Positions 3,664 to 39,709 of a stretch of 64,000 bases of DNA are shown piece after piece. Origin of the DNA: an uncultured Eubacteriales bacterium (lineage in GTDB: Bacteria > Bacillota > Clostridia > Oscillospirales > CAG-272); NCBI GenBank assembly GCA_934467415.1, contig CAKSLQ010000011.1, forward strand, positions 22,581 to 86,580. The letters are read 5' to 3'. Made by a program: the position numbers and the translations under genes. Numbering within the stretch: the first letter of the stretch is position 1; each line of letters starts with the position of its first letter. Under the pieces are notes generated by a model. It did no database searches. It was not told where the DNA came from and saw nothing but the letters and a program-made list of their open reading frames with translations.

Positions 3664-3691
3664 AAAAACCGACGGTTTCCCGTCGGTTTTT
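3664..3691. terminator. Bidirectional hairpin terminator; closes the minus-strand beta-helix/peptide cassette
   Basis: AAAAACCGACGG-tttc-CCGTCGGTTTTT, with A- and T-runs on both sides. It lies 18 nt past the small-ORF stop. Confidence 0.7.
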
Positions 3692-3709
3692 GCTTTTTCC
3701 TATGTAAGC

Positions 3710-3877
3710 TCAGTTCCAGATGTCGCTGTAACGCAGCTCGGTCTTTGCGCCCGTGTAGTCCTCGGCGAGGCTGCCGTGCAGAACCGTCGGCTCCGTGCTG
3801 CCGCCGCTGGCCAGCAGAACGTCCACCGTCGAAACGCGGATGTATTCCAGCCTCGGCTGTTCGTAATTCTTTCTCAT
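3710..3877 (-). CDS. Unannotated small ORF (55 aa), member of a two-copy peptide family in this window
   Basis: Below the ORF-track size cutoff. GGAGG lies 8 nt upstream of the ATG at 3877. Translation: MRKNYEQPRLEYIRVSTVDVLLASGGSTEPTVLHGSLAEDYTGAKTELRYSDIWN. It shares an N-terminal motif with the ORF at 20940..21119 and has the same position relative to a paralogous upstream gene. Confidence 0.6.
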   Translation of the reverse strand: MRKNYEQPRLEYIRVSTVDVLLASGGSTEPTVLHGSLAEDYTGAKTELRYSDIWN

Positions 3878-3890
3878 GTCGATAGCCTCC

Positions 3891-5231: not shown

Positions 5232-5294
5232 TGCTTGAAATCCCCTTTCTTCCGCTTCAACCGTTTTTGGGTATGAAGCTTGATTATACATTTA

Positions 5295-5323
5295 AGTATA
5301 ACAATAATATTTTACACCGTCAA
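5295..5323 (-). promoter_or_regulatory. Promoter of the paralog A / small ORF cassette
   Basis: On the reverse strand: TTGACG, 17 nt, TATACT. Confidence 0.5.
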
Positions 5324-15666: not shown

Positions 15667-17211
15667 TCAGTTGGCTTTTGCGTCGCGCATGGCGGCAACG
15701 GCGATGCGCGTAAAGATGACGCAGGCTTCGCCGCGCTTGATGTCATTCTGCGGGTTGTACTTGCCGCCCGCGCCGCCGACAATGCCCGCCTCGGCGAGCT
15801 TCTTGACGGCCGCCGCGGAGGGCAGCGTGTCGTTCATGTCGGAGAGCGTGTAGGTGCGGATCGCCGCATATTCGCTCTCGGGCAGGATGTTTGCAAAGAC
15901 GATCGCCATCTCGCCGCGCGTGATGTTCCTGTTGTAGTCGGTGAACTGGCCGTCCCCAATGATGCCGCTTGTCACGCAGTATTCGACGTAGGGCATGTAC
16001 CATGCCTCGCCTGCCGCCGCCGCGCGAACCTTTGTGCCGTTGTACGCGGTGTGGATGTTGGCCGCCGCGGTCAGCGCCTGCGCAACCGTAAACGTCCCCT
16101 CGGGTGAGAACGCGGATGCGCTCGTGCCGTTGGCCAGGCCGTATTCATACGCCGTCTTCACATATTCGAGCGACCAGTGGGACGCCACGTCTGCAAACTG
16201 GTTCCCATAGGTGCGCGTGGGCGCAAAGCCGCCCTGCTTATTGAGGGTGTCAAACGAGCTGCCGACCACGCCGAACGAGATCGTCTTACCGACGGCGGCG
16301 CTGTAATGCAGCGCAAAGCCCTCCGCCGACTTGTCCTCCGGCTTGCGGTCAAATGCGCCGAGCGTGCCGCCCGTCCAGTTGAGGACGAAGCGCTGCATCG
16401 AGATCGGCTTGTCGCTGCATACCAGGCGCTCGATGTGCGCATTGCCGCCGAGGTTCAGCGTGGTGTCGGTGTTGCCCGCCGAGACGCCGTTGACCGGCGC
16501 GATATACAGCGTGCCGATCTTGGCATCGCCCTCGACCGTGACGGTCGCCGCGCCCGAGAAGTCGGAGTTGGCAAAGCCGCGCGAATAGGCGGCAATGGTG
16601 ATCCCCTCGCCGCTGCGCACCGTAATCTCCACGGGGTCGCTGCCGCTGGCCTGCGGCTTGGCCCCGCCGATGGTCATCGCCTGCCCCATCTGATAGCCGC
16701 CGCAGATTGCAAACGCCGAAGCAAAGGATTTGCCGTCAAATTTCGCGCCGTCGCTGGTGATCGTGACGCCGGTGTCAATGGTGACGGGATAGTGGTTGGC
16801 GATGACGAAGAAGTAGTTGTCGAGCAGGTGGAAATCAAGGTCGCGGAACACATATGCGCCCGCGCACATGAAGCGCTGCCCGGAGACGGTGTACTTCGCG
16901 CCCTGCGCGCGGTAGTCCACACCGTCATACACGGCGGTGATCGTCACCGTGCCGGAAAATTCCTCCGTGTAGGCGAAGAACGTGGTCTGCTTAAATTCGC
17001 CGACGAGCACCACCGTGGCGTCGTCGCGCGAGAGGTCGAGCGCATCCATCGCCGTGGTCAGTCTGCCGATCGGCGCGTCCGGCGACGAGCCGTCACCCGT
17101 GCCGCCCGTGGCGAGAAAGACCACATTGTCCGCCGCGGCCGCCGCAAGGGACAGCGCAAACAGCGAGAGGACAAGCAGGAAAAGGGAAACCAGCATCCGG
17201 TTGTGTTTCAT
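15667..17211 (-). CDS. Cell-surface beta-helix-like protein, paralog B, with C-terminal SLH domains
   Basis: Signal peptide MKHNRMLVSLFLLVLSLFALSLAAAAA. Module motifs VVFLATGGTGDGSSPDAP and TITAVYDGVDYR. C-terminal SLH-type repeats: FADVASHWSLEYVKTAYEYGLANG..., then YMPYVEYCVTSGII..., then AVKKLAEAGIVGG. Confidence 0.75.
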   Translation of the reverse strand: MKHNRMLVSLFLLVLSLFALSLAAAAADNVVFLATGGTGDGSSPDAPIGRLTTAMDALDLSRDDATVVLVGEFKQTTFFAYTEEFSGTVTITAVYDGVDYRAQGAKYTVSGQRFMCAGAYVFRDLDFHLLDNYFFVIANHYPVTIDTGVTITSDGAKFDGKSFASAFAICGGYQMGQAMTIGGAKPQASGSDPVEITVRSGEGITIAAYSRGFANSDFSGAATVTVEGDAKIGTLYIAPVNGVSAGNTDTTLNLGGNAHIERLVCSDKPISMQRFVLNWTGGTLGAFDRKPEDKSAEGFALHYSAAVGKTISFGVVGSSFDTLNKQGGFAPTRTYGNQFADVASHWSLEYVKTAYEYGLANGTSASAFSPEGTFTVAQALTAAANIHTAYNGTKVRAAAAGEAWYMPYVEYCVTSGIIGDGQFTDYNRNITRGEMAIVFANILPESEYAAIRTYTLSDMNDTLPSAAAVKKLAEAGIVGGAGGKYNPQNDIKRGEACVIFTRIAVAAMRDAKAN

Positions 17212-20898: not shown

Positions 20899-20931
20899 AA
20901 AAAGCGGGCGGGTGTTCCGCCACCCGCCCGC
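20899..20931 (-). terminator. Strong terminator directly after the small ORF
   Basis: GCGGGCGGGTG-ttccgc-CACCCGCCCGC, followed by TTTTT on the reverse strand. It lies 8 nt after the stop at 20940. Confidence 0.75.
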
Positions 20932-20939
20932 TCGCCGCA

Positions 20940-21119
20940 TCAGTTGTAGAAGAAGTCCGACCAGTTCTTATACTGATACCGTTCGGACGTGATGTCAAAC
21001 GTGTTCAGCGCCCCGCGAGCCTCATATTCGCCGGGGTTCACCTCGCCGCTGGCCAGCAGAATATCGTTTGCGGCCAGTTCCACCTTTTGCAGGGTCGGTT
21101 TTATATAGGTATGCTTCAT
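20940..21119 (-). CDS. Small ORF (59 aa), second member of the peptide family
   Basis: The track ORF 20940..21218 is trimmed to the ATG at 21119 (AAAGGGAG 10 nt upstream). Translation: MKHTYIKPTLQKVELAANDILLASGEVNPGEYEARGALNTFDITSERYQYKNWSDFFYN. An alternative ATG at 21140 overlaps the upstream stop as ATGA. Confidence 0.6.
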   Translation of the reverse strand: MKHTYIKPTLQKVELAANDILLASGEVNPGEYEARGALNTFDITSERYQYKNWSDFFYN

Positions 21120-21136
21120 TTTATTCACGCTCCCTT

Positions 21137-22726
21137 TCATCCGATGATCGTGTTGACACTCACACCTGCCGCGATCGGCAGCGTGTACTGCACGCCGTCG
21201 GCCTCGACAAACGCCCATGCGTAAATCGTCGTGTCAAGCTCGCTTTGCGGGATCTCGGCAAGGTCGAGCGCAAACGCCGTCTCCGTGCCGTCCGTCGCCG
21301 TCCATTCCGCCACCTTGGCGCTGCCGATGACGTCGGTCTTGGCAACGAAGATGCCGTAGCGGGCGACGGTTGCATCCGCCGTCGTCACAAGCTTGGCAAT
21401 CAGGCGGATCGTGCCTGCGCCGGTCTTGTCGGTCGCCGCGCTGACGCTGCCGAGCTCCAGCTTTGCCGTGATGGCCGGGATATCGCGGGTCTCAGACACG
21501 TTGCAGACCGTGCAGGTGCGCTTCTCCACGCCCTTCACGCCGAAGTCGGCCGGGGTCACGACCATCCAGTCGCCATAGGTGTGTTCGGTCTTGCCCAGAA
21601 CGCCTTCCTCGGTGGCCGAGCAGGTCTTGCAGGGGTAGAGCACTTTGCCCTCCGCCACACAGGTTGCTGGCGTCAGCACCTTGCCGTTGGTATAATCAAA
21701 GTCGTGCGTGTGCGTTGTCAAGGAAGTGAAGTCGCCGCCCATAGTAATCGCCGTATAGCTGTCAGACTCCTGCTGCACTTTATCGGTCGCCTCCAGCGTG
21801 ACTGCGCCCGCGGCCGTCAGACCGACGCTGCCGTTCGGCTTCATGGCGAAAGAGCCGACCTCGCCGCCGGTCCAGAGCAGGGTCAGATCGCTTGCCGCAA
21901 CATTGTGGACGCCCGCGCCGTAGACCGCGCCGACCGATGCATCGCCGAACACCTCCACACGGACACTGCCGACCGTGGTGTTTCTCGACTGATAGCCTGC
22001 CGCGTACAGCTCGTTGACCGCAGCCGTGCCGCCGATGTGCACGTTGATGTCGCCGTAGGTGCAGGCATTTGACGCCGTGACACCCTGCGCCGTGCCGAAC
22101 TGGCGCGGACCGCCGACCACGATCATATCGCTGCCGGAGAGCACGGTGACATTCGTCGCCGTGGGTCTGTCCACATACTTCGGACCGGCTGCGCCGCCGA
22201 AGTTATGCTGCACGCTGCCGACCACCCAGAACGCCTTGCCGATGTCACCGCCGGTATAGTTGTTCATCGCAACGCCCTCGCCGATGGTGACGGCATGGTG
22301 CTGACCGACCACCATAAAGGAGGTGCCGTCCGCCGACGCAAAGGTGACATTCTCAAAGGTCGTGTCGTCCGCAAGGCCGAAGCGGGCATACTTCGAGGTC
22401 TTGTAGACCGCGCCGCTGTCGCGATAGTCCACGCCGCCGTACACACTGGTAATCGTGATGGACTTTGCGGAGTGCGCGCGTGCAAAGTGCGTGCTCTGCG
22501 AGAATGCGCCGCAGAGGACGACCGTGCCGTCCTGGTCGGGGTCGAGCAGGTTGTACGCCGCGTTGAGGCCGGCAACCGCTGTCTCCGGGGTCAGACCGTC
22601 CGCCTCATTGTTGCCGCTCCCGCTCAGGTACACGACGGTCGCCGTGCCTGCCGCCGAAGCGCAGAGTGCAAATGTCAGGAGCATCAGAAGCGCCGTGACA
22701 AGTGCTAGGCCGAATTGCTTTTTCAC
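21137..22726 (-). CDS. Secreted beta-helix-like protein, paralog C, with a Cys-rich insert
   Basis: Trimmed to the GTG at 22726 (AAAGGAG SD), giving VKKQFGLALVTALLMLLTFALCASA as a signal peptide. Module motifs VVYLSGSGNNEADGLTPE and TITSVYGGVDYR. The C-terminal domain aligns with paralog A (IYAWAFVEADG vs IYAWAYVNLAG). Confidence 0.7.
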   Translation of the reverse strand: MKKQFGLALVTALLMLLTFALCASAAGTATVVYLSGSGNNEADGLTPETAVAGLNAAYNLLDPDQDGTVVLCGAFSQSTHFARAHSAKSITITSVYGGVDYRDSGAVYKTSKYARFGLADDTTFENVTFASADGTSFMVVGQHHAVTIGEGVAMNNYTGGDIGKAFWVVGSVQHNFGGAAGPKYVDRPTATNVTVLSGSDMIVVGGPRQFGTAQGVTASNACTYGDINVHIGGTAAVNELYAAGYQSRNTTVGSVRVEVFGDASVGAVYGAGVHNVAASDLTLLWTGGEVGSFAMKPNGSVGLTAAGAVTLEATDKVQQESDSYTAITMGGDFTSLTTHTHDFDYTNGKVLTPATCVAEGKVLYPCKTCSATEEGVLGKTEHTYGDWMVVTPADFGVKGVEKRTCTVCNVSETRDIPAITAKLELGSVSAATDKTGAGTIRLIAKLVTTADATVARYGIFVAKTDVIGSAKVAEWTATDGTETAFALDLAEIPQSELDTTIYAWAFVEADGVQYTLPIAAGVSVNTIIG

Positions 22727-22750
22727 TGTTATCAATCTCCTTTCGCCGAT

Positions 22751-22790
22751 GCCGACAGCATCGCTTCTTTCATCAGCCGACAGCATCGCT
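22751..22790. repeat. Two 15-nt direct repeats in the paralog C leader
   Basis: GCCGACAGCATCGCT at 22751-22765 and again at 22776-22790 (25-nt period). They lie between the predicted -10 and the SD. Confidence 0.7.
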
Positions 22791-22802
22791 TTTTATATAA
22801 AC

Positions 22803-22831
22803 AGAATAGCATTGCCGTGCCGCATTTCCAA
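22803..22831 (-). promoter_or_regulatory. Putative promoter of the paralog C / small ORF cassette
   Basis: On the reverse strand: TTGGAA, 17 nt, TATTCT. Confidence 0.35.
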
Positions 22832-28245: not shown

Positions 28246-30972
28246 TCATTTGGAGAGCTTCGTAAGGGCAGTGTACACGTCCGCGATGCCGACGTCGCGC
28301 AGCCCGTGGTAATACGGCTGTGCCGCCGCATCGAGGCCGCCGCCTACCGCCGCCTTGCAGAGCAGCAGCGCGTCGGCGAGATCGACCCTGCCGTCCCGGT
28401 TCAGGTCGCCCGCAAGGATGCGGGTGAGCGTGACGCCGTCCGCCGTCTCGACCGTCACGCGGCCGGTGTTGCGGTACGCAGCATAGGTCTGCCCCTCGAC
28501 CTTGCCGGGAGCGGTATAGTCCCGGAAGCTGCCCGAGACCGTCCCGGCCACATGGGCGCTGACGCTGCCGGTGAGGTAATTCTGCCCGGCAAAGCCGTTC
28601 ATGCCGTTGGCCGCAACGGTCGCGCCCTTGCCGATCCGCACCGTCAGATTGCCGCCGTAGGTGGCAAACGGCGATGTGCCGAAGAGCCGGTAGTTGCCGC
28701 CGACGAAGAACATATACCTGCCGCCGTCCAGAATCACGGTCTGGTCGGCGCTGCTGCCCGCGCTCGCGGCGTCGTCGGCCGCGGTCTTGGCAAAGTCGCC
28801 TTCAAAGAGCAGGTTGCCGCAGAGCACATAGAAGTTGCCCGACGTCTTGACCATCTCAGTAAACTCTGCGTTGTTCCAGCCGAGCGCAAGGTAGGCGATG
28901 CCGGTATCGCGCCGCAGCGTCAGGTTGTCAAAGCGCGCGCCCGCGCCGAGGCGGATCATGTCGCCGGTGAGTGCCAGCGCCGCGTCCGTTCCCTCGCCGA
29001 CGAAGGTCAGCGTGCCGCTGCCCAGCGGCGTGACAAACTTGGTGTAGGCCACCGTACCCATGATGTGAATCGTCGCTTCCCCGTCCGGGTCGACAAGGCC
29101 GAAAGCGACGGGCAGCGAGGAGATCGGGTCGGCCGCCGTACCTGCGCCCGCCAGTCTGCCCGCAGCGGAAACGTAGACGTCCGAGCGGTAGAAGTTTTCA
29201 ACCTCGGTCACGCCGCCAAAGATGGCGTTGTAGACCGCGGCGGCGTAGAGCCTGTAGCCGTCCGCATCCGGGTGCAGCTTGTCGCCCGCGAAGAGCGCGT
29301 CGCTCACCGCGTCGGGCAGGAGCAGCGCATAGAGGTCGATGTAGGTGAATTTGCCCGGCACCGCGGCGGCAAGCGCGCGGGTGACGCGCGCCTGAATCGG
29401 TCGGATGACCGAGACCGCACGGATGTCCGCCTCCTTGTTGGAGGTGTAGCGGTAAATGGCCGAGGTGGTGAACACGCGCGCCGTATCCGGCAGCGCGGCA
29501 TAGTCGCGGAGCAGCGCCTCGTATTCGCGCTCGAAATGCGCGCGCTGGCCGATGGTACCGCCCGCAACGAGCGCATCGTTGGTGCCGAGCGCGACCAGCA
29601 CATAGGCGCTGTCCGCCTCGGTGAGCGAGAGTACGCCCGCCAGCGTATCGCGGTGGCGGATCTGATTGTAGGGGAGCACCGTGGAAGCGCCCACGCCGAA
29701 GTTGGAGACGACAAGCTCCCTGCCTTCCTTTTCCGCGGTCTCCAGCACGCGCGCCGTGTAGGCATTGTGCGTCGGATCGGCTGCGCCCGTGCCCTCGGTG
29801 ATGCTGTCGCCGACGAAGGAGATGCGCAGCGGTTCCGTGTAGGTCTGCACCTCGCCGTTGACCACGTCGAAGCGCTTGATTGTAAGACCCGATGCCGCGG
29901 GACAGGTCAGCGTCGCCTTCTTGTCCGTGCCGGGGTAGGCCTTGACCTGCGTGGCGTCCACCACCGTCCCGGCTGCAAAGGCCGCACCCGCGCCGACCGT
30001 CACATCAAAGTTGCCGCGCAGCACCTGCGTATAGCCCGTGGAGGTCTGGAACGCGCTGATCTCGCCGCCCGCAAAGCTGCCGCCCGTGATATTCACCGTG
30101 ATGTCGCCGTCGAGCGCATAGCGGCTGCTGTCGGACGACGCCCAGACGGAGCAGTAACTTGCATAGGCTGCGACCTCGCCGAGCCGCCCCTGCGCGTAGA
30201 TGGGCAGGTTGAAGCTGCCGCCGTTTATCGTGAGGGTCGCGTCATCGCAGAGCAGCGACATGCCGGAGAGGCTGAACGCATTTTCGTCCTTGTTGTTGCT
30301 TGCCGTGTCATAGCCGACCTTGCCGCCGAACGTGCCGCCGTTTACCGTGACGGTGAGCGGTGCGGTGATCGAGCCGACGAGGTTCTGCCGGTCGGCGCGG
30401 CGGTTGCCGCCCGCGAAGGTGGCAAATGTGCCGGCGTTTACCGTGATCGAATAGGGCAGCTCACAGCTGATCACCTTGCCGATGTGCAGATTGCCCGCGT
30501 CCTGCCGCATCTCGCCGGGCATCGTATCCACGCCGCCGAAAAAGTCCAGCGTGCCGTCCGCGCTGAAATGCTCGCCGAACGTGATCGAGTTGAACCCGCC
30601 GAGGATCGCGCGGCGACCGCGCGCCGCGACGGGCAGATCGAGCGTGATCACGCCGTCGTCCGTATTTTTCGCAAACGAAAGATCGCCGTAAAGGATCAGG
30701 CTTCCGCCTTCGGCCGCATAGGTGACGTTCCCCGCCTCGGGCAGAGTCACATCCCCGCGCAAAGCGAGGCTGCCGAGGATGACGATACGGCCGTCGCCGC
30801 CGCCGAGCGCTTCGGCCGCCGCCGTAAGCGAACCGAGCGGGGACGCGGCGCTTGTGCCATCGCCGTCGCCGCCCTCCCGCACATACAAAGTCGTTTCCGC
30901 CGCGGCCGCGCCGCAGACCGTTCCGCACAGAAGTCCCATACAAAGCAAAGCAGAAAGCCAAAACTTACGCAT
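28246..30972 (-). CDS. Secreted multidomain protein 1 of 3: beta-helix-like module, SGNH/GDSL esterase, second beta-helix-like module, dockerin-like tail
   Basis: Trimmed to MRKFWLSALLCMGLLCGTVCGAAAA (GGAGGA SD; a promoter at 31003-31031 excludes the 31026 start). SGNH blocks: FVGDSITEG, FGVGAST, LGTNDA, DKLHPDADGY. C-terminus: GDLNRDGRVDLADALLL. Confidence 0.75.
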   Translation of the reverse strand: MRKFWLSALLCMGLLCGTVCGAAAAETTLYVREGGDGDGTSAASPLGSLTAAAEALGGGDGRIVILGSLALRGDVTLPEAGNVTYAAEGGSLILYGDLSFAKNTDDGVITLDLPVAARGRRAILGGFNSITFGEHFSADGTLDFFGGVDTMPGEMRQDAGNLHIGKVISCELPYSITVNAGTFATFAGGNRRADRQNLVGSITAPLTVTVNGGTFGGKVGYDTASNNKDENAFSLSGMSLLCDDATLTINGGSFNLPIYAQGRLGEVAAYASYCSVWASSDSSRYALDGDITVNITGGSFAGGEISAFQTSTGYTQVLRGNFDVTVGAGAAFAAGTVVDATQVKAYPGTDKKATLTCPAASGLTIKRFDVVNGEVQTYTEPLRISFVGDSITEGTGAADPTHNAYTARVLETAEKEGRELVVSNFGVGASTVLPYNQIRHRDTLAGVLSLTEADSAYVLVALGTNDALVAGGTIGQRAHFEREYEALLRDYAALPDTARVFTTSAIYRYTSNKEADIRAVSVIRPIQARVTRALAAAVPGKFTYIDLYALLLPDAVSDALFAGDKLHPDADGYRLYAAAVYNAIFGGVTEVENFYRSDVYVSAAGRLAGAGTAADPISSLPVAFGLVDPDGEATIHIMGTVAYTKFVTPLGSGTLTFVGEGTDAALALTGDMIRLGAGARFDNLTLRRDTGIAYLALGWNNAEFTEMVKTSGNFYVLCGNLLFEGDFAKTAADDAASAGSSADQTVILDGGRYMFFVGGNYRLFGTSPFATYGGNLTVRIGKGATVAANGMNGFAGQNYLTGSVSAHVAGTVSGSFRDYTAPGKVEGQTYAAYRNTGRVTVETADGVTLTRILAGDLNRDGRVDLADALLLCKAAVGGGLDAAAQPYYHGLRDVGIADVYTALTKLSK

Positions 30973-31002
30973 CTGTTTTTCCTCCGAGATGATTTCGATT
31001 TC

Positions 31003-31031
31003 AGTATAGCGTTCTGTACAAAGCAAAGCAA
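31003..31031 (-). promoter_or_regulatory. Own promoter of tandem gene 1
   Basis: On the reverse strand: TTGCTT, 17 nt, TATACT. Confidence 0.45.
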
Positions 31032-31085
31032 GCGCTTTCTCCCATCAATCGGAAAATGTATACAAAGACCTGCTTTTTTCATATC

Positions 31086-31114
31086 AAAAAGGCTGCACCG
31101 AAGTGCAGCCTTTT
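31086..31114. terminator. Terminator after tandem gene 2
   Basis: AAAAGGCTGCAC-cgaa-GTGCAGCCTTTT. Confidence 0.75.
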
Positions 31115-31123
31115 GGTTCGGAT

Positions 31124-33973
31124 TTATGCGATTTTCTTCAGCATCCAGATGATGTCGCGCAGGGTGACCGTGCTTCTGCCGAAGTAATGCGCGCCGTCCG
31201 CCGCGGTGAAGCTGCTGTTCAGCAGCTTGGAGACCGCGATCAGCGCATCGCGTGCATTGAAGACGCCGTCGCCGTCGAAGTCGCCGACAACCCGGCGGGC
31301 AATGCTGCCCGCGCCGATCGTCTCGACCGTGATGCTGCCGGTATTCTTCGTGCAGTCAAAGGTCGTGCCGACAGGTCCTGTAATGGTCGCATAGTCGCAC
31401 AGCGTGCCGGTGATCGGTGCGGCAGTCACCAGCTTGACGGAGCCGGTGAGGTAGTTTGCGCCGCAGGCGCCGCTCTGCCCGTCGGCCGACAGTGCAACCT
31501 GTGCGCCCGCGCCGATGTTGATGGTCAGATTGCCGCCGTAGGTGCAGATCGGCGAAAAGCCTTTCCAGCGCCAGTTGCCGCCGATGATCCAGCGCCAGTT
31601 ACCGCCGTTCACCGTCACCACGGCATCCGCATCGCTGCTGCCTGCCGCGACGGTATCAAAGTTGCGCGTGTCGGGATTGGTCACGCTGTAGACCTCGCTG
31701 CCGCCGTAGACCGCATGGCCCGCAGCAAGCACGCCGACGACCGGCATGGTCACGCTGTCGGTGATCTCGACGTTGTGGTAGTTGCAGACGACGAACATCG
31801 CGCCCGCGCCGGTGTAGTTCAGCTTGAGATTGTCAATGCAGCCGTCCGTGCGGAAGCGGATCATCTTGGCGTTTTTGTCCAGTGCAAGCGTTGCACCGTC
31901 GCCGACGCCGACGAACCTGATGCTCGCAAGATCGTCGGGCGCGGTCAGCCATGTGCTGACGGTCTGTGTGCCGATGACGCGCACCTCGGCGTCCGAGCCG
32001 GGACGCAGGCGCGCGATGGCGACCTCGATATAGCGGATGGGGTCATCCGCCGTGCCTGCGCCGTCGATGCGGCCCGTGTCCGAGACATAGACCGTATCGA
32101 GCGTGCTGAAGCCCTCAACCGCGGTCACGCCGCCGAAAATCGCATTGTAGATGGCGGGGGCATACACATTCCGATAGCCCTCCGCATGGGGATGCAGCAT
32201 GTCGCCGGAGAGCAGCGCGCCCGCCGCGCCCTTGCTGTCCACCTGCATGGCCTCCGCAAAGGTCAGCGCGTAGAGGTCAACAAAGACGTACTTGTCGCTT
32301 GTCTTGGCCAGCGTCTCGGTGGCGCGGCGCTGCATAGCACGGACATTGACTGCGCCGAGCGCCGACTGGCGCTGTGACGGCTTCGTCTTTTCGTTGTCTT
32401 CATATTTTTTAATTGAGCGATAGAGCGCGCTGGTGGTGAACACCTTCTTCGTGGTCGGAAGGTCGCCGTAGCCCTTGATGAAGGCGGTGTACATCTCTTC
32501 AAAGCGCGCATGCTGACCGTCGGTCACCATCGTGTTGTAGGCGTCGTTGGTGCCGAGGCCGATGATGAACCAGTCGGCGTCGCATTCCTCGCGCGTCAGC
32601 CGGAAGTTCAGCATGTCGTTGTACCAGATGTTGTTGGTCGGCATGACGGTGGAGCCGCCGATACCGTAGTTGCCGAGGATCGCCTCGCCGCCGTTCTTTT
32701 CAATCAGCGCAAGGAGCTGCGCCGGATACGACTTGGTCTCAAAATCCCATGCACCGCTGCCCGCGCCCGTGCCCTGCGTGATGCTGTCGCCGATGCAGGC
32801 GATGCGCAGCGGCTCGTCGTAGGTCTGCGCCGCGCCGTTGACCATGTCGAAGCGCTTGGGGGTGATGTTCATCGACGCGGGATAGACAAGCGTCGCCTTC
32901 TGATCCGCACCGGCATACGCCTTGACCTGCGTTGCGTCGATGACCGTGTCCGGCGCAAAGGTCGCGCCGTCCGTGATATGGACATTGAAATTGCCGCGCA
33001 GGACCTGCGTCAGCCCCGCGCCGGTCTGGTAGGCGCTGATCTCAAAGCTCTCAAAAGTACCGCCCGTGATATTCAGCGTGATGTCGCCGTCTATCGCGTA
33101 ATACCTGCGGTCGGACATGGTGAGCGCCGAGCAGCCGCCCATGCGGGAGTTGCCGACGCCGCCGCGGCCGATGACATAGACCGGTGCGCGGAATGTGCCG
33201 CCCGTGATGGTGAGTGTGGCATCGTCGGCGAGGATACCCATGCCGGAGACGCTGAATGCGTTTTCATTCTTGTTCAGCGAGGTCTGCGTAAAGGAGACGG
33301 CGCGCCCGAAGGTACCGCCGTTTATCGTGATTTCGATCGGCGCGGCGATCGAGCCGAGCAGGCAGCTGCCGTTTACGCGGCGGTTGCCGCCCGCAAAGAC
33401 GCCGAAGTTGCCGTTGTCCACCGTGATGGAATAGGGCAGCTCGGTGACGCACTTCGCGTTCAGCGTGCGGTTCTGCGCCGCATAGCTCGTGATATCCGCC
33501 GTGCCCTCCGGCGTGTCCACGCCGCCGAAGAAGTCAACCGCGGTCGCCATCTCGCACTTCGCGGTGAAATGCAGGCTGTTGTAGCCGCCGAAGATGACCC
33601 GCTCGCCACTCGCCGTAATCGGCAGGTCGAGTGTGATCAGGTTGGCATTCGTGTTCTTGGCAAAGGTGAGGTCGGCCGCAAGGTTCAGGCGTCCGTTCCC
33701 CTCCGCCGTAAAGGTCAGATCACCGCTCTGCTCCGGCACGGTGTATGCCGCGGAAAGCGTGACCGGCGAAAGGAAGACGACCGTGCCGCCCTCGCCGCCG
33801 AGCGCGGCAACCGCCGTGCCGAGCGAGCCTGTCGGGGATGCGGCACTTGCGCCGTCGCCCGTCCCGGCCGCCGAGACATAGACGGTGCGCTCCGCCGCCG
33901 CAGCCGTGCAGACAAGCGCAGCCGCCAGGCAGACCAGTGCGCAAAGAAGCAGAATCGATTTCATTTTTCGCAT
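31124..33973 (-). CDS. Secreted multidomain protein 2 of 3 (same architecture as gene 1)
   Basis: Start at the ATG at 33973 (GGAGG 9 nt upstream), giving MRKMKSILLLCALVCLAAALVCTAAAA. SGNH blocks: CIGDSITQG, LGTNDA, DMLHPHAEGY. Tail: GDFDGDGVFNARDALIAV. Confidence 0.75.
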   Translation of the reverse strand: MRKMKSILLLCALVCLAAALVCTAAAAERTVYVSAAGTGDGASAASPTGSLGTAVAALGGEGGTVVFLSPVTLSAAYTVPEQSGDLTFTAEGNGRLNLAADLTFAKNTNANLITLDLPITASGERVIFGGYNSLHFTAKCEMATAVDFFGGVDTPEGTADITSYAAQNRTLNAKCVTELPYSITVDNGNFGVFAGGNRRVNGSCLLGSIAAPIEITINGGTFGRAVSFTQTSLNKNENAFSVSGMGILADDATLTITGGTFRAPVYVIGRGGVGNSRMGGCSALTMSDRRYYAIDGDITLNITGGTFESFEISAYQTGAGLTQVLRGNFNVHITDGATFAPDTVIDATQVKAYAGADQKATLVYPASMNITPKRFDMVNGAAQTYDEPLRIACIGDSITQGTGAGSGAWDFETKSYPAQLLALIEKNGGEAILGNYGIGGSTVMPTNNIWYNDMLNFRLTREECDADWFIIGLGTNDAYNTMVTDGQHARFEEMYTAFIKGYGDLPTTKKVFTTSALYRSIKKYEDNEKTKPSQRQSALGAVNVRAMQRRATETLAKTSDKYVFVDLYALTFAEAMQVDSKGAAGALLSGDMLHPHAEGYRNVYAPAIYNAIFGGVTAVEGFSTLDTVYVSDTGRIDGAGTADDPIRYIEVAIARLRPGSDAEVRVIGTQTVSTWLTAPDDLASIRFVGVGDGATLALDKNAKMIRFRTDGCIDNLKLNYTGAGAMFVVCNYHNVEITDSVTMPVVGVLAAGHAVYGGSEVYSVTNPDTRNFDTVAAGSSDADAVVTVNGGNWRWIIGGNWRWKGFSPICTYGGNLTINIGAGAQVALSADGQSGACGANYLTGSVKLVTAAPITGTLCDYATITGPVGTTFDCTKNTGSITVETIGAGSIARRVVGDFDGDGVFNARDALIAVSKLLNSSFTAADGAHYFGRSTVTLRDIIWMLKKIA

Positions 33974-34006
33974 TTGCAAAGACCTCCGCTTTGATTTCTT
34001 ATCTTT

Positions 34007-34035
34007 AGTTTAACATTTTGCCGCTCCGTCCGCAA
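34007..34035 (-). promoter_or_regulatory. Putative own promoter of tandem gene 2
   Basis: On the reverse strand: TTGCGG, 17 nt, TGtTAAACT. Confidence 0.3.
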
Positions 34036-34100
34036 CAAAAAGCATGTGTAAAAGGCTATTCAAAGCACAGGAAAATGCGGATTTTATACACAAAAACGCC

Positions 34101-34133
34101 AAAACAAAGGAGCCGGTAGCGGCTCCTTTGTTG
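34101..34133. terminator. Terminator after tandem gene 3
   Basis: CAAAGGAGCCG-gtag-CGGCTCCTTTG. Confidence 0.7.
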
Positions 34134-34148
34134 AAACTGTTCAATTTT

Positions 34149-36896
34149 TCACCCTGCGGTTTGGCCAAGGATCCAGGTCACGTCGGCGAGGGTGACATGC
34201 CGTCTGCCGAAATAAGCGTAGCTGTAGGGGAATTTTTCGTCCAGCGCGCAGCGCAGCATGATGAGCGCATCGCGGATATCGACCGCGCCGCTGCCGTCGA
34301 AGTCGCCTGCAAGCACCTCGCCGCGGATGATCCTGCCCGTGTTGTTTGCCTCGTCATAGACCACGCCGGAAAGCGTGCCGGTGATCATATAGTCGGGCAG
34401 CGCGGCGTCTGTCTTGATATCTGCCGTGACAGAGCCGGTGAGATAGTTCGCACCGACAATGCCGATGTAGTCCGTGGCGGTGATCTTCACACCCGCACCG
34501 ACCGTCAGCACCATGTTGCCGCTGTAGGTGCCGATGGGGGCGCCGCCCGCAAAGCGGCGGTTACCGCCCGCAAAGCCGACCCATGTGCCGCCGTTGACCG
34601 AGATGACGGCGTTGCGGCTCGAAGATGCGCTTGCCACCGTGTCATAGGTTGTCGCCGTTGCAGCGACCGCCTCTGCGCGCGTGAAGACATTGTAGCCCGC
34701 ATAGAAGTTCCAGGTGCCCGTCGTTTTTACGCTGTCCGTGATCTCCACATCGTTGTAGCAGGCGATGATATGGGTGCCCGTTTCGGACTTCAGCGTGATG
34801 TTGTCGAGCTTCGTATTGCTGCCGAGCTTGAACGTGTTGCCCGAGATGCTGAGCACCGCGTCCGCCCCCTCGCCGACGATGGTCAGGTGCGAGGGATTCA
34901 TCGAGGAGAAGAAGTTGCCCGCGAGCGTCCAGGTGCCGACCACATGCAGGGCGGCATCCTTATTGTAGGCGAGCTTATCCATCGCGACCGCAAAGTTTGA
35001 GATGGGGTCGGCCGCCGTGCCCGCGCCGTTGATCGAACCGCTGTCCGAGACATAGACGTCGGTCATGCAGAAGCCCGCGACCTTCTTGTCGCCGCCGCCG
35101 AGCATGGCATCGTACAGCTTCCTTGCCATGATGCCGTAGCCGCTTGCGGCGGGATGCAGGTTCTCTTTGCTGTCCGCAAACAGCGCGCCGCTCTTGGCAT
35201 CGGCATAGGTGAGCTGGTAGAGGTCGATGAAGTCGTACTTGCCCGGGTTCTCCGCCGCAAGCTCGCGCGCGATGCGTTCCTGCGTGGGGTGCAGCGCCGA
35301 CGATGCGCGCAGGTCGTTCACGGCATTCGAGGTTTTGCGGTAGATGGCGGTCGTGATATAGACGCATTCGGTGTCCGGTTTGTTGCCGAACAGCGTGCAA
35401 ATATCGCGATAGTTGGCCTCAAACTTTTGCAGCGCACCGTTCGTGCCGCCGATGGTGGCCGCATCGTTCGTGCCCATCGCGATGACGTAGAGCGCCGCGT
35501 CGCACTCCTCGGTGGCCAGCGGGTAGGCCAGCATCTTCATGTAGTCACGCTTGGTGCTGGGGAGGAAGCCGGAGGCGGAAACGCCGTAGTTGGAGACGAT
35601 GATCTCGCGGCCGTCCGTCTCGGCAAGGCCGAGGAACTGCGCGGGATAAGCCTGTGTCAGACGATCCGTGGTCGCCCCCGAGACAGACAGATAGTAGCCC
35701 TCGGTGATGCTGTCACCGATGAACGCGACGCGCAAAGGCTCTGTGTAGGTCTGTGCCGCGCCGTTGACCACGTCAAAGCGCTTTGCCGTAAGGCCGAGTT
35801 CCGCGGGATAGGTCAGCGTCGCTTTCTTATCCGCGCCGGCATACGCCTTGACCTGCGTCGCATCAATGACCGTACCCGCCGCAAAGACGGGCGAACCGGT
35901 GACGGTCACGTCAAAATTGCCGCGCAGCATCTGGGTGTAGCCCGCCTGCGTGTAGTACGCGCTGATGAGCCCGCCGCCAAAGGTACCACCGCTGATGTTG
36001 ATCTGAATATCGCCGTCCGCCGCGTAGTACTTTCTGTCCGACGCGGTCAGGGTGGAAGTCTGCGAAGAGCCCGCCGGCACATTGTCCAGCCTGCCCTGCG
36101 CAAAAATCGGTGCGTTGAACGTGCCGCCCGTGATGTTCAGCGTCGCATCGTCGGCGAGAATGGCTGCACCGGAAATGCTGATATCCCAGTAGTTCTTGTT
36201 GTTCGTGGTGAGGTCATAGTCCCCCGCCTTGCCGAAGGTGCCGCCGTTGATTGTAATGGTGACGGGTGCGGCGATTGAACCGACCGGAACGCCCTTGCCG
36301 GCGCTCTGCGGTGCATTGCGGTAGTTGCCCGCGGAAAACATGTAGAAGTCGCCGCCGTCCACCGTGATGGAATACGGCAGAGTGGTGACAAGGTCGGCAT
36401 TCGCCGTGCCGTCAGACGCCAGCGCGCCGCCCATGAAGTGCAGTCTGCCGCTTGCTCCATTGTTGGTGACGACGCACTTGTCGGTGAAATGCACGCTGTT
36501 GAAGCCGCCGAAGATGAAGACCGGGTAGGTCTTTGTCATCACGATCGGCAAATCAAAGGTGAAGGTGTTGCCATTCGTGTTCTTGCCGAGCTGAAGACGG
36601 CTGCCCTGGAGCAGTCTGCCGCCGTCCGCGGCGGTCAGCGTGAAGTCGCCGCTCTGCTCGGGAATGGTGGTGATGTCACTGATGGTCACATCACCGCAGG
36701 CGACGACCGTACCGCCCTTGCCGCCGAGCGCCGAAACCGCCGCATTCAGCGTGCCGAGCGGGCTTGCCGCGCTCGAGCCGTCACCCGTGCCGCCGTCCCG
36801 CACATAGACGGTCACGCCGTCGGCCGCAAACGCCGCCGCGGTGCAAAGGCAGGCGCAGATCAGCATCGAAAGGATGAACAAAAGAGACTTGCGCAT
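34149..36896 (-). CDS. Secreted multidomain protein 3 of 3 (same architecture)
   Basis: MRKSLLFILSMLICACLCTAAAFA. SGNH blocks: FIGDSITEG, MGTNDA, ENLHPAASGY. Tail: GDFDGSGAVDIRDALIML. Confidence 0.75.
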   Translation of the reverse strand: MRKSLLFILSMLICACLCTAAAFAADGVTVYVRDGGTGDGSSAASPLGTLNAAVSALGGKGGTVVACGDVTISDITTIPEQSGDFTLTAADGGRLLQGSRLQLGKNTNGNTFTFDLPIVMTKTYPVFIFGGFNSVHFTDKCVVTNNGASGRLHFMGGALASDGTANADLVTTLPYSITVDGGDFYMFSAGNYRNAPQSAGKGVPVGSIAAPVTITINGGTFGKAGDYDLTTNNKNYWDISISGAAILADDATLNITGGTFNAPIFAQGRLDNVPAGSSQTSTLTASDRKYYAADGDIQINISGGTFGGGLISAYYTQAGYTQMLRGNFDVTVTGSPVFAAGTVIDATQVKAYAGADKKATLTYPAELGLTAKRFDVVNGAAQTYTEPLRVAFIGDSITEGYYLSVSGATTDRLTQAYPAQFLGLAETDGREIIVSNYGVSASGFLPSTKRDYMKMLAYPLATEECDAALYVIAMGTNDAATIGGTNGALQKFEANYRDICTLFGNKPDTECVYITTAIYRKTSNAVNDLRASSALHPTQERIARELAAENPGKYDFIDLYQLTYADAKSGALFADSKENLHPAASGYGIMARKLYDAMLGGGDKKVAGFCMTDVYVSDSGSINGAGTAADPISNFAVAMDKLAYNKDAALHVVGTWTLAGNFFSSMNPSHLTIVGEGADAVLSISGNTFKLGSNTKLDNITLKSETGTHIIACYNDVEITDSVKTTGTWNFYAGYNVFTRAEAVAATATTYDTVASASSSRNAVISVNGGTWVGFAGGNRRFAGGAPIGTYSGNMVLTVGAGVKITATDYIGIVGANYLTGSVTADIKTDAALPDYMITGTLSGVVYDEANNTGRIIRGEVLAGDFDGSGAVDIRDALIMLRCALDEKFPYSYAYFGRRHVTLADVTWILGQTAG

Positions 36897-37030
36897 CGAA
36901 AATTCCTCCTGTCTGCGGAGGCAAATGCCTCCGATTGTGTACTATAATCAGTTTAGCATAATATTGCACACATAACAAGCTAAAAACACCTGTATTTTCG
37001 GTCAAAATTTCACAGTTTTGAACCTCTTTC

Positions 37031-37070
37031 AAAAAAAGTCCGAAATCCCGGATGGGATTTCGGACTTTTT
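37031..37070. terminator. Terminator after the SLH-BNR gene
   Basis: 17-bp stem AAAAAGTCCGAAATCCC-ggat-GGGATTTCGGACTTTTT. Confidence 0.8.
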
Positions 37071-37071
37071 G

Positions 37072-39570
37072 TCAATCCAATACGATCGACGGCCAAAGCG
37101 AGGTGGAAAATGCGGAGACGCCGGTGAGCGTGTCCGAGATCGAGCCGCTGCCGTCCTGATTGGCCAGCGCCGGGCGCACCTTGAAGCGCGATGCACCGAC
37201 AAGGCCGACGGCCGATTTCGGCACGGCGATCTCGGCGACACAACCCTCGTCGCGGTCGTCGTTGTTCCCCACCGTGCCGAGCACCTTGACCGCCGCTCTT
37301 CCGCCGGTGAGCGTCTGCTGCTTTGCGCCGCCCGCATAGTGGTCAATCGTCATCGCGCCGTCAATGCCTACCGTGATGCGGTAATCCGCCGCCGCGCCCG
37401 CGCCGATGCACACCGTCATCGTGTCGCCGTCCTGCAGGAAGTCGTCCGAGCGGGAGAGGAGGAAGTAGACGTTCTCATCGTCGTGCGCGGCGCGCAGCGT
37501 CATCTGCGCCTGCGACTCGCTGCCGACAAAGAGCGCGTCGGTATTTTCGATGTCGTCCCAGTCGTTCGTGTAACCGTCCACCGTGACCTTGACCTTCGGC
37601 GCGTTGATGCGGTGGTTGAGATATTCGCGCACCAGCATCAGCCCGGAGTTGCCGTCCGCCGTCTTATGCTGGTTGGCCGCGATCACGGCATGGCTGCCGA
37701 CCGGGCTGACCGAGCCCCAGACGCCGACCGCCTCCATCGTCTGAAAATCCTTGTTTGCAAACGCGGTGCCGTCCGGCTTGCCTAGCCTGCCGCAGAGCCG
37801 CGCGCCCTTGTTGTACACCATGTAGGTCTCGCCGGACGCAAAGCGCGTGACATAGGGCGAGCCGACCGCGTAGACCGTTTCGCTCAGCGTCTCGGGGCCG
37901 ACCTCCTCGAGGTCGAGCGCGCGCCAGACGCCGTTTTCCCCGCTCGTGGCATACGAGCCCCAGAATTTCAGATTCAGATCCTGAATTTCATAGACGAGCA
38001 GCGTTTTACCGTTGTACAACTCCACCGGGACGGGCATCTGCCCGCCGAAATAGGGGCGCGAAACGCCGTCGGGGCCGACCTTGTTGCCGAGCGCGGTCTG
38101 CACGACGGTTGTCGCACGGTAATGATTCGTGTCGCCCGCCTGAATGTTCGGCGTCCAGCTGTAGCCGTTGTCCTTCGAAACAAGCAGACCGATGCCCGCC
38201 GAACGCTTCTCGGTGTCAAAACCGTAGAGGTCGATATAGGGTGCGATCTGCGTGAAATACACCTCCACCGTGCCGTCCGCGCGCTGCTGAATGCCCGGCT
38301 CCCAGACCTGCCCGGTGTAGATTTTCGTCGGCTGCGACCACTCGATGTCGCCGTCGTCCGTCACCCTGCCGCGCAAGAGGAACAGCCCGCACAGATCGGC
38401 ATACATGCGGTAGCCGCCGGGCGCACGCTCGGCAAAGACGCAGAGAATCTCGCCGTTTTGCAGCACGACGGCATCCGGGTTGACCGCCGCATAGTTCTCG
38501 GTCTTGCCGACAAGCGAGGTGTCGCCGTTCTTCGCGGGCTCGGTATAGGTGAACATGTGATCCTGCCCTCTGTAGAGCACCTGCGGCTCGTTCCACCTGA
38601 CGCCGTCGCGGCTGGTGGCGTAGTACATATGCAGCCCAAACTCACCGTAGTGGTAGAGGAGCAGATAGAGGTCGTCGCGCACCTGCTTCACGCGCGGGTA
38701 CCATGCGTTTTCATAGCGGTAATAGCCGGTCTTCGCCGCCGTCAGCTCCACTTTGGTGCGGAAGTCCGCCTCCACCGACGCCGTGTTGTAATCGTCATCC
38801 GCATGGTCGCCGTCCGTCCCCTTGGTATTCAGCTGTGCAATGGGGGTGATGACCGTCTTCAGCTCCTTCGGATCGGTATCCGGCTGTATCGGTGCGCCGC
38901 CCCCGTTCATCGCCTTGTCATAGGCCTCCTTCGTGAAGACGCCCTTGGCAATCAGCTGATCCGCAATGCTGTCCCCGCTCTTCACCGCCGCCGTCAGCGC
39001 ACGATAGCAGAGGACGAACGCACCGCCGCGGTTGAAGCCGTTCGATTTTGCATCGCAAAGGCCGACCGACTTTGCCAGCGTGTAGGGGTCGTTCCACTTG
39101 AAGTCACCCGCGCCGTCGTCGTAGCCGAGCACGCGCAGCAGGATCGTGAGGAACGCCGCCTCCGACACCTCGGTGTCGGGGTCAAACTTCGTCTCGCTCA
39201 CGCCCTTGGTGATGCCGTTTGCATAGACGTAGCCGATATAGGGGTTTGCCCATGCGGGTACATCGGTGAACGGATGCTTCTGCACGTTCGCCGTCGCGTC
39301 CTTCTCCGCGCCGACAAAGCGCACCACGAGGACGAACGCCTGCGCGCGCGTCAGCTTGTCGCCGAGCGCAAAATTCACGCTGCCGTCCGCGTTATTCCCG
39401 TAGCCGCCGACCAGCCCGAGCGCATGGAGCGCCTCGGCCGCGCCGCCCGCCGTCGGAACCGCGTTTGTCGTCACGGGCGCGGGCGAAATCAGCAGGCCGT
39501 CCGCCGCGTATGCGGGCAACGCGCTGCACAGCGCCGCCAGAGCGAGCAGACATGCAAGCCATTTTTTCAT
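37072..39570 (-). CDS. Cell-surface protein: N-terminal SLH domains, BNR/Asp-box beta-propeller (sialidase-like or GH93-like), C-terminal CBM9-like domain
   Basis: Trimmed to MKKWLACLLALAALCSALPAYA. SLH-type FTDVPAWANPYIGYVYANGITKG. Asp-boxes SRDGVRW and SKDNGYSW. The C-terminal VDGYTNDWDDIENTDALF...AHDDENVYFLL resembles CBM9. Confidence 0.65.
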   Translation of the reverse strand: MKKWLACLLALAALCSALPAYAADGLLISPAPVTTNAVPTAGGAAEALHALGLVGGYGNNADGSVNFALGDKLTRAQAFVLVVRFVGAEKDATANVQKHPFTDVPAWANPYIGYVYANGITKGVSETKFDPDTEVSEAAFLTILLRVLGYDDGAGDFKWNDPYTLAKSVGLCDAKSNGFNRGGAFVLCYRALTAAVKSGDSIADQLIAKGVFTKEAYDKAMNGGGAPIQPDTDPKELKTVITPIAQLNTKGTDGDHADDDYNTASVEADFRTKVELTAAKTGYYRYENAWYPRVKQVRDDLYLLLYHYGEFGLHMYYATSRDGVRWNEPQVLYRGQDHMFTYTEPAKNGDTSLVGKTENYAAVNPDAVVLQNGEILCVFAERAPGGYRMYADLCGLFLLRGRVTDDGDIEWSQPTKIYTGQVWEPGIQQRADGTVEVYFTQIAPYIDLYGFDTEKRSAGIGLLVSKDNGYSWTPNIQAGDTNHYRATTVVQTALGNKVGPDGVSRPYFGGQMPVPVELYNGKTLLVYEIQDLNLKFWGSYATSGENGVWRALDLEEVGPETLSETVYAVGSPYVTRFASGETYMVYNKGARLCGRLGKPDGTAFANKDFQTMEAVGVWGSVSPVGSHAVIAANQHKTADGNSGLMLVREYLNHRINAPKVKVTVDGYTNDWDDIENTDALFVGSESQAQMTLRAAHDDENVYFLLSRSDDFLQDGDTMTVCIGAGAAADYRITVGIDGAMTIDHYAGGAKQQTLTGGRAAVKVLGTVGNNDDRDEGCVAEIAVPKSAVGLVGASRFKVRPALANQDGSGSISDTLTGVSAFSTSLWPSIVLD

Positions 39571-39709
39571 AGGTTGTCTTCCTTTCTCTCCGCAAAGCAC
39601 ATATAAAATCGTGTAACTTTATTATACAATATCACACAACTGATTTCCACAGGCAATCCCACGCTCGGTGATATTGTCAAGTTTTTCGGTGAAAAATGCA
39701 AACAGCACG

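Follow-up and report, generated by a model that had tools for sequence, protein, structure and literature searches.

Does the short open reading frame (ORF) that directly follows the gene of a large secreted protein in an uncultured Eubacteriales bacterium encode a functional peptide, and if so, with which partner does this peptide work? The question is raised by a stretch of 64,000 nucleotides (contig CAKSLQ010000011.1, positions 22,581 to 86,580; hereafter the window, position 1 being its first letter), in which a 59-amino-acid (aa) ORF is located between the gene of a secreted beta-solenoid-like protein and a transcription terminator. A preliminary description of this locus had offered three options for the ORF product: the leader/core precursor of a peptide that is made by ribosomes and modified after translation (RiPP), an exported signalling peptide, or a docking partner of the upstream protein. 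Here the ORF is identified as a genuine conserved gene, and its product is coupled to a new C-terminal domain (CTD) of diverse surface proteins. Small proteins are the least understood gene content of the gut microbiome and few have a defined partner; this peptide family comes with one.

On re-reading, the coordinates, the translation and the Shine-Dalgarno spacing of the 59-aa ORF were identical to those noted before: the ORF runs on the minus strand from an ATG at 21119 to a stop at 20940-20942 (Table 1). The Shine-Dalgarno sequence AAAGGGAG overlaps the upstream stop codon, as is typical of genes whose translation is coupled, and a hairpin at 20902-20933, 6 nt past the peptide stop, closes the cassette. 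An in-frame ATG that overlaps the upstream stop (ATGA, within 21117..21140) could give rise to a 66-aa form (MKGSVNKMKHT...), which is called in some assemblies (P0001, P0004); the extension is not kept in other loci. A second cassette with a paralogous large gene and a 55-aa ORF had been proposed at 3664..5323. It has the same layout, with a promoter-like site at 5295-5323, and in a six-frame translation of the window the peptide motif was found at just these two sites. The two large proteins are paralogs with 39% identity over 304 residues and 40% over their last 108.

Word-indexed searches identified 12 clusters with 73-98% identity to the copy-2 peptide and 3 clusters for copy 1, all of them called genes in gut metagenome or metagenome-assembled genome assemblies. 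When 1.84 billion representative proteins were searched exhaustively with a profile, 29 matches at E <= 1e-3 were obtained, of which 28 were peptides of 36-74 aa and one was an ankyrin-like false positive. A scan of a genome collection with alignment A1 gave one true locus, L009. The family is narrow: its 28 clusters at 50% identity all come from gut-type Clostridia assemblies, and the nearest named record is 'uncultured Eubacteriales'.

The family pattern in alignment A2 is M-K-x-x-x-Y-x-x-P-x-L-x-x-V-x-L-A-A-x-D-I-L-L-A-S-G, in which Tyr and Ser are invariant and Pro, Asp, Leu and Gly nearly so; amino-acid conservation at the Y, P, D, L and S positions reaches down to 25-30% identity. The distance between the Tyr and the invariant Ser is exactly 19 residues in 27/27 unique peptides. 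The middle of the peptide is a linker rich in Pro, Gly and acidic residues, and a C-terminal aromatic motif, [WYF]-x-[DN..]-[IVF]-[WF] (W-x-D-I-W type), is present in 45 of 46 members. The ratio of non-synonymous to synonymous changes (dN/dS), pooled by the Nei-Gojobori method over ten pairs, was 0.30 and 0.34 in the N- and C-terminal halves of the peptide, respectively, compared to 0.29 in the adjacent CTD, which indicates that the C-terminal half is also under purifying selection. The divergence ascribed earlier to this half holds between the two window copies and does not extend to the family, in view of the aromatic motif and the dN/dS value.

The signs by which, according to the preliminary description, a spurious ORF could be recognized were all looked for and not seen: no stops or frameshifts occur in the peptide gene in about 45 loci, the gene does not evolve neutrally, and the motif is enriched downstream of the large genes. 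The ATG is located 4-20 nt past the upstream stop with a Shine-Dalgarno-like site in nearly all loci; GGAGG/AAGGAG/GGGAG-type sites were identified in most of the other loci, in a few the purine-rich stretch is weaker, and at the mapped start of L029 no such site was seen. It is concluded that the small ORF is a genuine conserved gene that looks translated.

The encoded peptide is acidic, with a mean isoelectric point of 4.85 and a net charge of -2.8 in the C-terminal part, and hydrophilic, with a grand average of hydropathicity (GRAVY) of -0.49. The absence of Cys and of a signal peptide, noted before for the window copies, extends to the family: it is essentially Cys-free and, as judged from composition, no signal peptide or membrane segment was seen, the candidate h-region holding Lys, Glu, Asn and the near-invariant Asp. 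Secretion via Sec and signal peptidase I (SPase I), for which an unbroken hydrophobic h-region behind a basic n-region would be expected, was rejected on the basis of these interrupting residues and the GRAVY value. AlphaFold2 (AF2), run with an alignment of 30 sequences, predicted an extended N-terminus and no tertiary fold (pTM 0.18); judged by this model, the product is a linear-motif peptide and not a mini-protein.

To which part of the upstream protein the peptide belongs became apparent from the distant homologs, of which the upstream proteins have just the last ~110 residues in common with the window protein. The GLUG-motif proteins encoded by two (probably three) tandem cassettes at L011 align with the window protein over their C-terminal ~115 aa only, with 43-47% identity to its CTD. 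The partner at L014 is a BspA-type leucine-rich repeat (LRR_5) protein with a CTD tail. When L001 was compared with window copy 2, the identity was 40% for the passenger, 89% for the CTD and 80% for the peptide. The passengers carrying the CTD thus belong to at least four unrelated classes, namely the window-type beta-solenoid, GLUG, LRR_5 (one with cohesin) and one unknown class. In peptide-seeded loci with a full-length (>= 50 aa) peptide, the CTD is always found at the extreme C-terminus of the upstream gene, with the exception of L016 and L017, which harbour the peptide P0037. The CTD protein is the only gene common to all loci.

The reverse search was performed with the CTD alignment A3 on the metagenome collection, independently of the peptide, and returned 25 loci. 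One of these ends at a contig edge and was excluded; in 24/24 loci with downstream sequence, a match to the peptide family profile starts 4-20 nt past the stop of the CTD gene. Paralogs with the window-type passenger in which S-layer homology (SLH) domains replace the CTD have no peptide gene, both in the window (15667..17211, where neither the peptide nor the CTD profile matched) and in L001 and L009 (1495/1521-aa genes). The genetic rule is unusually clean, in that a CTD means a peptide, and it comes with natural negative controls. The pairing with a beta-helix paralog, as originally proposed, has to be abandoned: GLUG, BspA-LRR, cohesin plus LRR and unknown passengers carry the CTD with a peptide gene, while the SLH-bearing beta-solenoid paralog is without one.

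CTD and peptide also vary together. Their pairwise identities are correlated (r = 0.88, Mantel p <= 5e-4), and for the C-terminal half of the peptide r = 0.89. The copy-1 cassette has identities of 0.51-0.61 (CTD) and 0.45-0.55 (peptide) to the GLUG-type cassettes, compared to 0.33-0.43 and 0.25-0.33, respectively, to its own passenger class, indicating that CTD and peptide are shuffled as one unit. No fusion of CTD and peptide was found among the best 29 matches of the exhaustive search, which fits two polypeptides with different fates. Readthrough or frameshifting that would fuse the peptide to the CTD was considered and rejected, since the gaps of 4-20 nt occur in all frame relations and an own ribosome-binding site and ATG are present nearly everywhere. 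It is concluded that the coupling of the peptide to the CTD, a new domain at the C-terminus of diverse Sec-secreted surface proteins, is obligate and modular, and that the peptide is always a separate polypeptide. The pair had been described as a closed bicistronic unit with its own terminator, which applies to both window copies; in other genomes it is also found in tandem arrays or within longer operons. Such arrays are present at L011 (4190..9076; 510 aa + 54 aa, 483 aa + 56 aa and the start of a third cassette) and at L044 (2654..8120; 764 aa + 41 aa, 752 aa + 39 aa).

Short peptide variants of 39-44 aa, which contain the N-terminal motif only, also trail large secreted proteins without a Pfam match and are partly arranged in tandem (L044, L047, L049). 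For the C-termini of the proteins upstream of these variants, a likeness to a distant CTD is no more than suggestive (profile-profile E = 0.0088, probability 4.6%); the short variants hint at a wider superfamily. P0037 (64 aa; L016 7792..7986, L017 326..520) combines the N-terminal motif with a W-G-D-I-W-G end. Its neighbours, in a mobile region of Bacteroidetes-like character, are an HU-like gene and the gene of a lipoprotein, and a Shine-Dalgarno site is absent; either its likeness to the family is convergent or the family extends further. In Mesorhizobium sp. WSM4306, tblastn matched the first 39 residues of the peptide (L010 6001..6123, 44% identity), but the family profile did not confirm this match, which is probably due to chance.

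The large proteins have Sec-type signal peptides without a conserved twin-arginine motif, and hitchhiking via the twin-arginine translocation (Tat) pathway was therefore ruled out. In the AF2 model of the 549-aa window protein, the passenger is predicted with confidence (pLDDT 85-95), and the CTD is modelled with low confidence (pLDDT 45-54) as eight strands without helices; the underlying alignment was shallow, as the word-indexed CTD search gave six fragments. When this model was compared with the PDB using Foldseek, nothing was found at E < 1e-3, and the weak top matches were ~100-residue sandwiches resembling immunoglobulin (Ig) domains or the carbohydrate-binding module CBM21. Neither the two window peptides (0 families at E <= 1) nor the two large proteins belong to a Pfam or NCBIfam family, Pfam gave nothing useful for six further upstream proteins, and sequence searches of the PDB, whether with the full protein or with the profiles of peptide and CTD, yielded chance-level matches only. 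Most of the residues that are invariant in the CTD have a hydrophobic or structural character (A, V, G, L, I, P, Y, W, plus one Asp), and they do not form a catalytic-looking set. The CTD has no transmembrane tail, no sortase motif and no Pfam match.

Passenger and CTD are connected by linker modules of about 35 aa (H-T-Y-G-D-W ... C-x-x-C), one of which is 94% identical in L001 although the passenger there is just 40% identical. A weak sequence match of the linker to the IgA protease chain 9qa6 was observed (E = 0.0036). Possibly these Cys-containing modules form a zinc-ribbon-like linker which moves together with the CTD.

The reading that is tentatively favoured is that the peptide is a dedicated, separately encoded binding partner of the CTD, which probably acts before Sec export. 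Among the three options named at the outset, a docking partner fits best, and the linkage and co-variation described above suggest that it docks to the CTD and not to the beta-helix part. Peptide and large protein would be made from one mRNA by coupled translation, by which the peptide would appear beside the domain that is synthesized last. Since the large protein has a Sec signal and the peptide, made right after the CTD from the same mRNA, has no export signal, contact between the two is most likely cytoplasmic. The rigid N-terminal segment Y-x-x-P-x-L ... D-[IV]-L-L-[AT]-S may dock as an added beta-strand on the all-beta CTD, as a RiPP leader does on its RiPP recognition element (RRE); YxxPxL-type motifs are known to dock in this way, and the weak match of the peptide profile to the TfuA leader in the PDB falls on precisely this stretch. 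The acidic aromatic C-terminal part, whose co-variation with the CTD is closest, may confer cognate specificity. The peptide could in this way be a private cytoplasmic escort or mask: with the peptide bound, the CTD would stay export-competent or inert up to translocation, at which point the peptide would be removed. That the two bind physically, that docking is by an added strand and that the peptide is an escort are all inferred.

Several observations weigh against a cognate partner of the CTD. The CTD model has the low confidence given above and binding between CTD and peptide is a prediction, P0037 is a weak family member in a Bacteroidetes-like locus without a CTD protein, and we know of no precedent for an escort of this kind for Sec substrates in Firmicutes. 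The CTDs of L035 and L036 are nearly identical (dN 0.008, dS 0.011) while their peptides differ at 12/52 residues, which is not predicted by strict one-to-one co-evolution and suggests either recombination that swapped the peptide gene alone or pherotype-like variation. Many synonymous changes are also found between these two peptide genes (L035 397..549, L036 4333..4488; dS 0.2-0.7). Finally, the leader-like N-terminus, the fixed Tyr-Ser spacing and the SPase-like sequence L-A-S|G point equally to a processed, exported peptide.

In this second explanation, which is considered unlikely overall but carries appreciable weight, the first ~24 residues are a leader, which an RRE-type adapter would bind via YxxPxL and which would be cleaved close to L-L-A-S|G; Ser24 might be modified. 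The enzymes and the exporter would be encoded elsewhere and be common to all cassettes, and the mature peptide would be an extracellular ligand or anchor of the CTD, as an alternative to SLH anchoring, or a signal that reports expression of the surface protein. YxxPxL-type motifs are experimentally established beta-strand docking motifs: leaders of lasso peptides and of the recently described linear polyphosphorylated peptides (LPPs) of Bacillota contain [Y/W]xxPx[L/V/I/F/A] and bind a discrete RRE as an added beta-strand (PMC10368454, PMC13381572). In lasso-peptide leaders YxxPxL occupies positions -17 to -12 (PMC10368454). In LPP precursors, a SipW-like signal peptidase, which an RRE presents, cleaves the leader, and phosphorylation occurs on the core at a Ser three residues from its start (PMC13381572). 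The peptides studied here conform to the lasso leader motif, with K-x-x-Y-x-x-P-x-L at the N-terminus, Y and P near-invariant, L/M/V at +5 across alignment A2 and an Ile/Val at Tyr+15, which corresponds to the lasso -2 position.

The likeness to LPP precursors is of a similar kind: both come from Bacillota, are of similar size, have a YxxPx[VL] leader, carry a Ser at Tyr+18 (LPP) or Tyr+19 (here), and combine this with SPase-I-like cleavage in LPP and the SPase-like L-A-S|G here. An exported peptide would explain the strict leader geometry, the alternation of SLH and CTD as C-termini of paralogs and the L035/L036 pair, which recalls pherotype-like variation; the peptide is predicted to be unfolded on its own, and several cassettes per genome could use one machinery.

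The gene neighbourhood speaks against export. RiPP precursors normally cluster with their enzymes, whereas no radical-SAM enzyme, lasso cyclase or protease, other cyclase, RRE, HprK-like kinase, S26 or other maturation peptidase or C39-type ATP-binding cassette (ABC) exporter was identified in the window or in the flanks of about 45 loci. The single ABC_membrane/ABC_tran gene of the window (48136..50013) is located 27 kb off, beside hisS. LPP clusters encode an RRE, an HprK-like kinase, a SipW-like peptidase, an NTP-transferase as well as an MsbA-like pump, none of which is near any cassette examined; moreover, HQ..I.FET of the LPP consensus YxxPxVLxHQxIxFETxxS is absent from the peptide family, and LPP cores are highly variable in contrast to the constrained C-terminal part found here. 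The leader likeness is at motif level, since the match of the peptide profile to the TfuA leader in PDB 6jx3 is at chance level (E = 0.77, profile positions 1-14) and no NCBIfam or Pfam precursor family was found at E <= 1. A ligand common to all cassettes would also need no 1:1 gene pairing.

Two related possibilities were examined and rejected. Export via a peptidase-containing ABC transporter (PCAT) and a double-glycine leader, an amphipathic leader that would end with Gly at -2 and Gly, Ala or Ser at -1, does not fit, as an invariant Ser precedes the conserved Gly, this Gly is replaced by A, T, D or E in some members, and no C39 transporter is present at the loci. The CTD itself was considered as a candidate RRE; however, RREs are PqqD-like winged helix-turn-helix domains of three helices and a three-stranded sheet, whereas the low-confidence AF2 model of the CTD is all-beta and no Pfam PqqD match was obtained.

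A more elaborate version, which is doubtful, combines CTD and peptide into an unrecognized surface-display or sorting system of gut Clostridia. The leader-bearing peptide would be recognized via YxxPxL, cut, possibly modified at Ser and exported by an unlinked RRE-type machinery, and would then be the envelope receptor or anchor for the CTD. If this is true, any passenger with a CTD would be displayed on the surface as a functional alternative to SLH anchoring, and a RiPP-like peptide would be a structural docking partner instead of a natural product. SLH domains, the C-terminal domain of the type IX secretion system (T9SS) and LPXTG are likewise conserved C-terminal modules on many unrelated passengers, and the CTD alternates with SLH in the paralogs of this genome; those modules, however, come without a separately encoded peptide.

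It is improbable that the cassette encodes an effector with its immunity protein or inhibitor, in which a harmful or highly reactive CTD would be neutralized by the signal-less peptide inside the producer. The layout of a secreted protein with its C-terminal domain followed by a small signal-less gene, the tandem cassette arrays (L011, L044) and the co-variation of CTD and peptide would fit. Staphopain/staphostatin, SpeB/Spi and barnase/barstar are cassettes of a secreted protein with a signal-less cytoplasmic cognate partner, but here the partner is a 55-aa peptide predicted to be unfolded, which is atypical of an immunity protein, and the CTD is a conserved, non-catalytic-looking putative beta-sandwich on unrelated passengers for which neither toxicity nor enzyme activity is indicated. 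The weak fold matches to Ig/CBM21-like sandwiches, the lack of a catalytic-looking set among the invariant residues, the adhesin- or enzyme-like passengers (LRR, GLUG, cohesin) and the location in glycan-utilisation operons also argue against an effector. Polymorphic toxins (PMC3482391) share with the cassettes the small signal-less partner directly downstream of a secreted protein, the 1:1 pairing and the co-variation; however, the polarity of variation is reversed, as here the N-terminal parts vary and the CTD is conserved, and the peptide has no fold of its own.

A conventional RiPP, of the lasso type or another, whose precursor gene adjoins these genes by chance, is very improbable and is largely refuted; the YxxPxL motif and the Ile/Val in the -2 register would fit it. 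The leader/core precursor of the preliminary description has support at the level of this motif. In the lasso register, the first residue of the would-be core is Leu in 43/46 members, whereas Gly, Ala, Ser or Cys is required in lasso peptides, and Asp/Glu, needed at one of positions 7-9 for the macrolactam ring, was found there in 59-74% over four registers, compared to 45% expected from composition. No RRE (B1), B2 protease or C cyclase is present in the window or in the gene tables of L001-L049, and the lasso precursor models of NCBIfam and Pfam were unmatched at E <= 1. The peptide C-terminus is conserved and aromatic and not hypervariable, and the strict link to the CTD is unlike that of a chance neighbour. 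A triceptide- or darobactin-like radical-SAM core, an idea based on the aromatic C-terminus, was discarded, as the window contains no radical-SAM gene.

It is barely conceivable, and refuted by conservation, that the ORF, a short one with a stop codon on one side and a terminator on the other, is a non-functional by-product of the 3'-region that serves, for example, only translation termination, mRNA stability or the terminator. Against this stand the conservation at the Y, P, D, L and S positions, which persists at 25-30% identity, the dN/dS of 0.3, the conserved start codon, the ribosome-binding site in nearly all loci, the reading frame intact in about 45 loci and the lack of an Rfam element.

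Bicistronic arrangements of a large gene and a small peptide gene are also known from Rap-Phr and ComQ-ComX, in which the upstream proteins are cytoplasmic receptors or modifying enzymes and Phr peptides have Sec signals. The Trp-containing C-terminal end of the peptide recalls ComX, but no homology to these systems was detected. Literature searches with the motif strings gave nothing relevant, and the earlier remark that no described function was known for this pairing was borne out: no description of the CTD-peptide module could be found in Pfam, NCBIfam, Rfam, the PDB or the searchable literature, and it is rated as outside the known kinds. It may still belong, as an unusual case, to the chaperone-like or RiPP-like classes.

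The surface proteins partnered with the peptide are adhesin- or enzyme-like (BspA-type LRR, GLUG, cohesin, beta-solenoid) and are encoded in glycan-utilisation loci of Clostridia that are abundant in the human gut, and the module therefore probably affects the export or display of surface proteins. An RRE-dependent leader docking motif without RiPP machinery nearby would mean either protein-protein docking outside natural-product biosynthesis or a trans-acting leader-processing pathway. Current views would be widened in either case, and both possibilities are open to a direct test with two small recombinant components.

Table 1. Coordinates of the two cassettes and of the SLH paralog in the window.
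Feature	Position	Strand	Evidence and remarks
Peptide gene, copy 2: MKHTYIKPTLQKVELAANDILLASGEVNPGEYEARGALNTFDITSERYQYKNWSDFFYN (59 aa + stop)	20940..21119	(-)	ORF; homologues with 73-98% identity; family profile E = 1.4e-22; dN/dS about 0.3
Shine-Dalgarno sequence AAAGGGAG	21130..21137	(-)	Ends 10 nt before the peptide ATG; overlaps the TGA stop of the upstream gene (21137-21139)
Upstream secreted protein gene, copy 2	21137..22786	(-)	549 aa from ATG 22786, or 529 aa from GTG 22726; Sec-type signal peptide
Passenger domain, beta-solenoid-like, residues about 48-345	21752..22645	(-)	AF2 pLDDT 85-95, all-beta coil; tblastn paralogs
Cys-containing linker modules (HTYGDW...C..C)	21491..21751	(-)	Residues ~346-432 of the 549-aa protein; low-confidence structure
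CTD, about 117 aa, all-beta (predicted), invariably coupled to the peptide gene	21140..21490	(-)	Alignment A3; residues 433-549 of the 549-aa protein
Intrinsic terminator closing the copy-2 cassette: 13-bp GC stem + U-run	20899..20933	(-)	-34.2 kcal/mol, z = -5.3 (folding compared with shuffles)
Peptide gene, copy 1 (55 aa)	3710..3877	(-)	Family profile E = 1.6e-21
Upstream secreted paralog, copy 1 (466 aa); CTD = 3894..4241	3891..5291	(-)	Window-type passenger present
Bidirectional terminator after copy 1	3664..3691	(.)	-25.1 kcal/mol, z = -5.8
SLH paralog: window-type passenger with SLH in place of the CTD; natural negative control	15667..17211	(-)	tblastn 30% identity over 280 aa; SLH by Pfam

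Beyond the terminator of copy 2, a promoter-like TTGAAA-17-TATACT at 20835-20863 would serve the next gene. This cassette is flanked on one side by a divergent AraC-type regulator and on the other by a glycan-utilisation operon that encodes DUF5696/DUF6259 proteins, two enzymes of glycoside hydrolase family 43 (GH43), the SLH paralog, a LacI regulator and a sugar ABC transporter. Neighbours of copy 1 are a PfkB kinase gene and a GGGtGRT/PTAC cluster; in the latter, directly downstream of the cassette (1270..3603), a conserved trio of PTAC, a 238-aa protein and GGGtGRT (PF14057) is encoded, which is syntenic in L005-L007. An Rfam scan of the window identified no RNA family.

Four large tandem genes are located on the minus strand at 28246..39600. 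Three of these encode paralogous proteins of ~915-950 aa with a central GDSL lipase/acylhydrolase domain, and the fourth an 842-aa SLH protein with weak, sub-cut-off Pfam matches to BNR_2 (BNR repeat-like) and PepX_N; neither the passenger domain studied here nor the CTD is present in any of them. At the edge of the window, next to several ORFs without a Pfam match (56329..61598), genes for a type I restriction-modification specificity (HsdS-like) protein and an N6-methylase were found on the minus strand (61791..63928).

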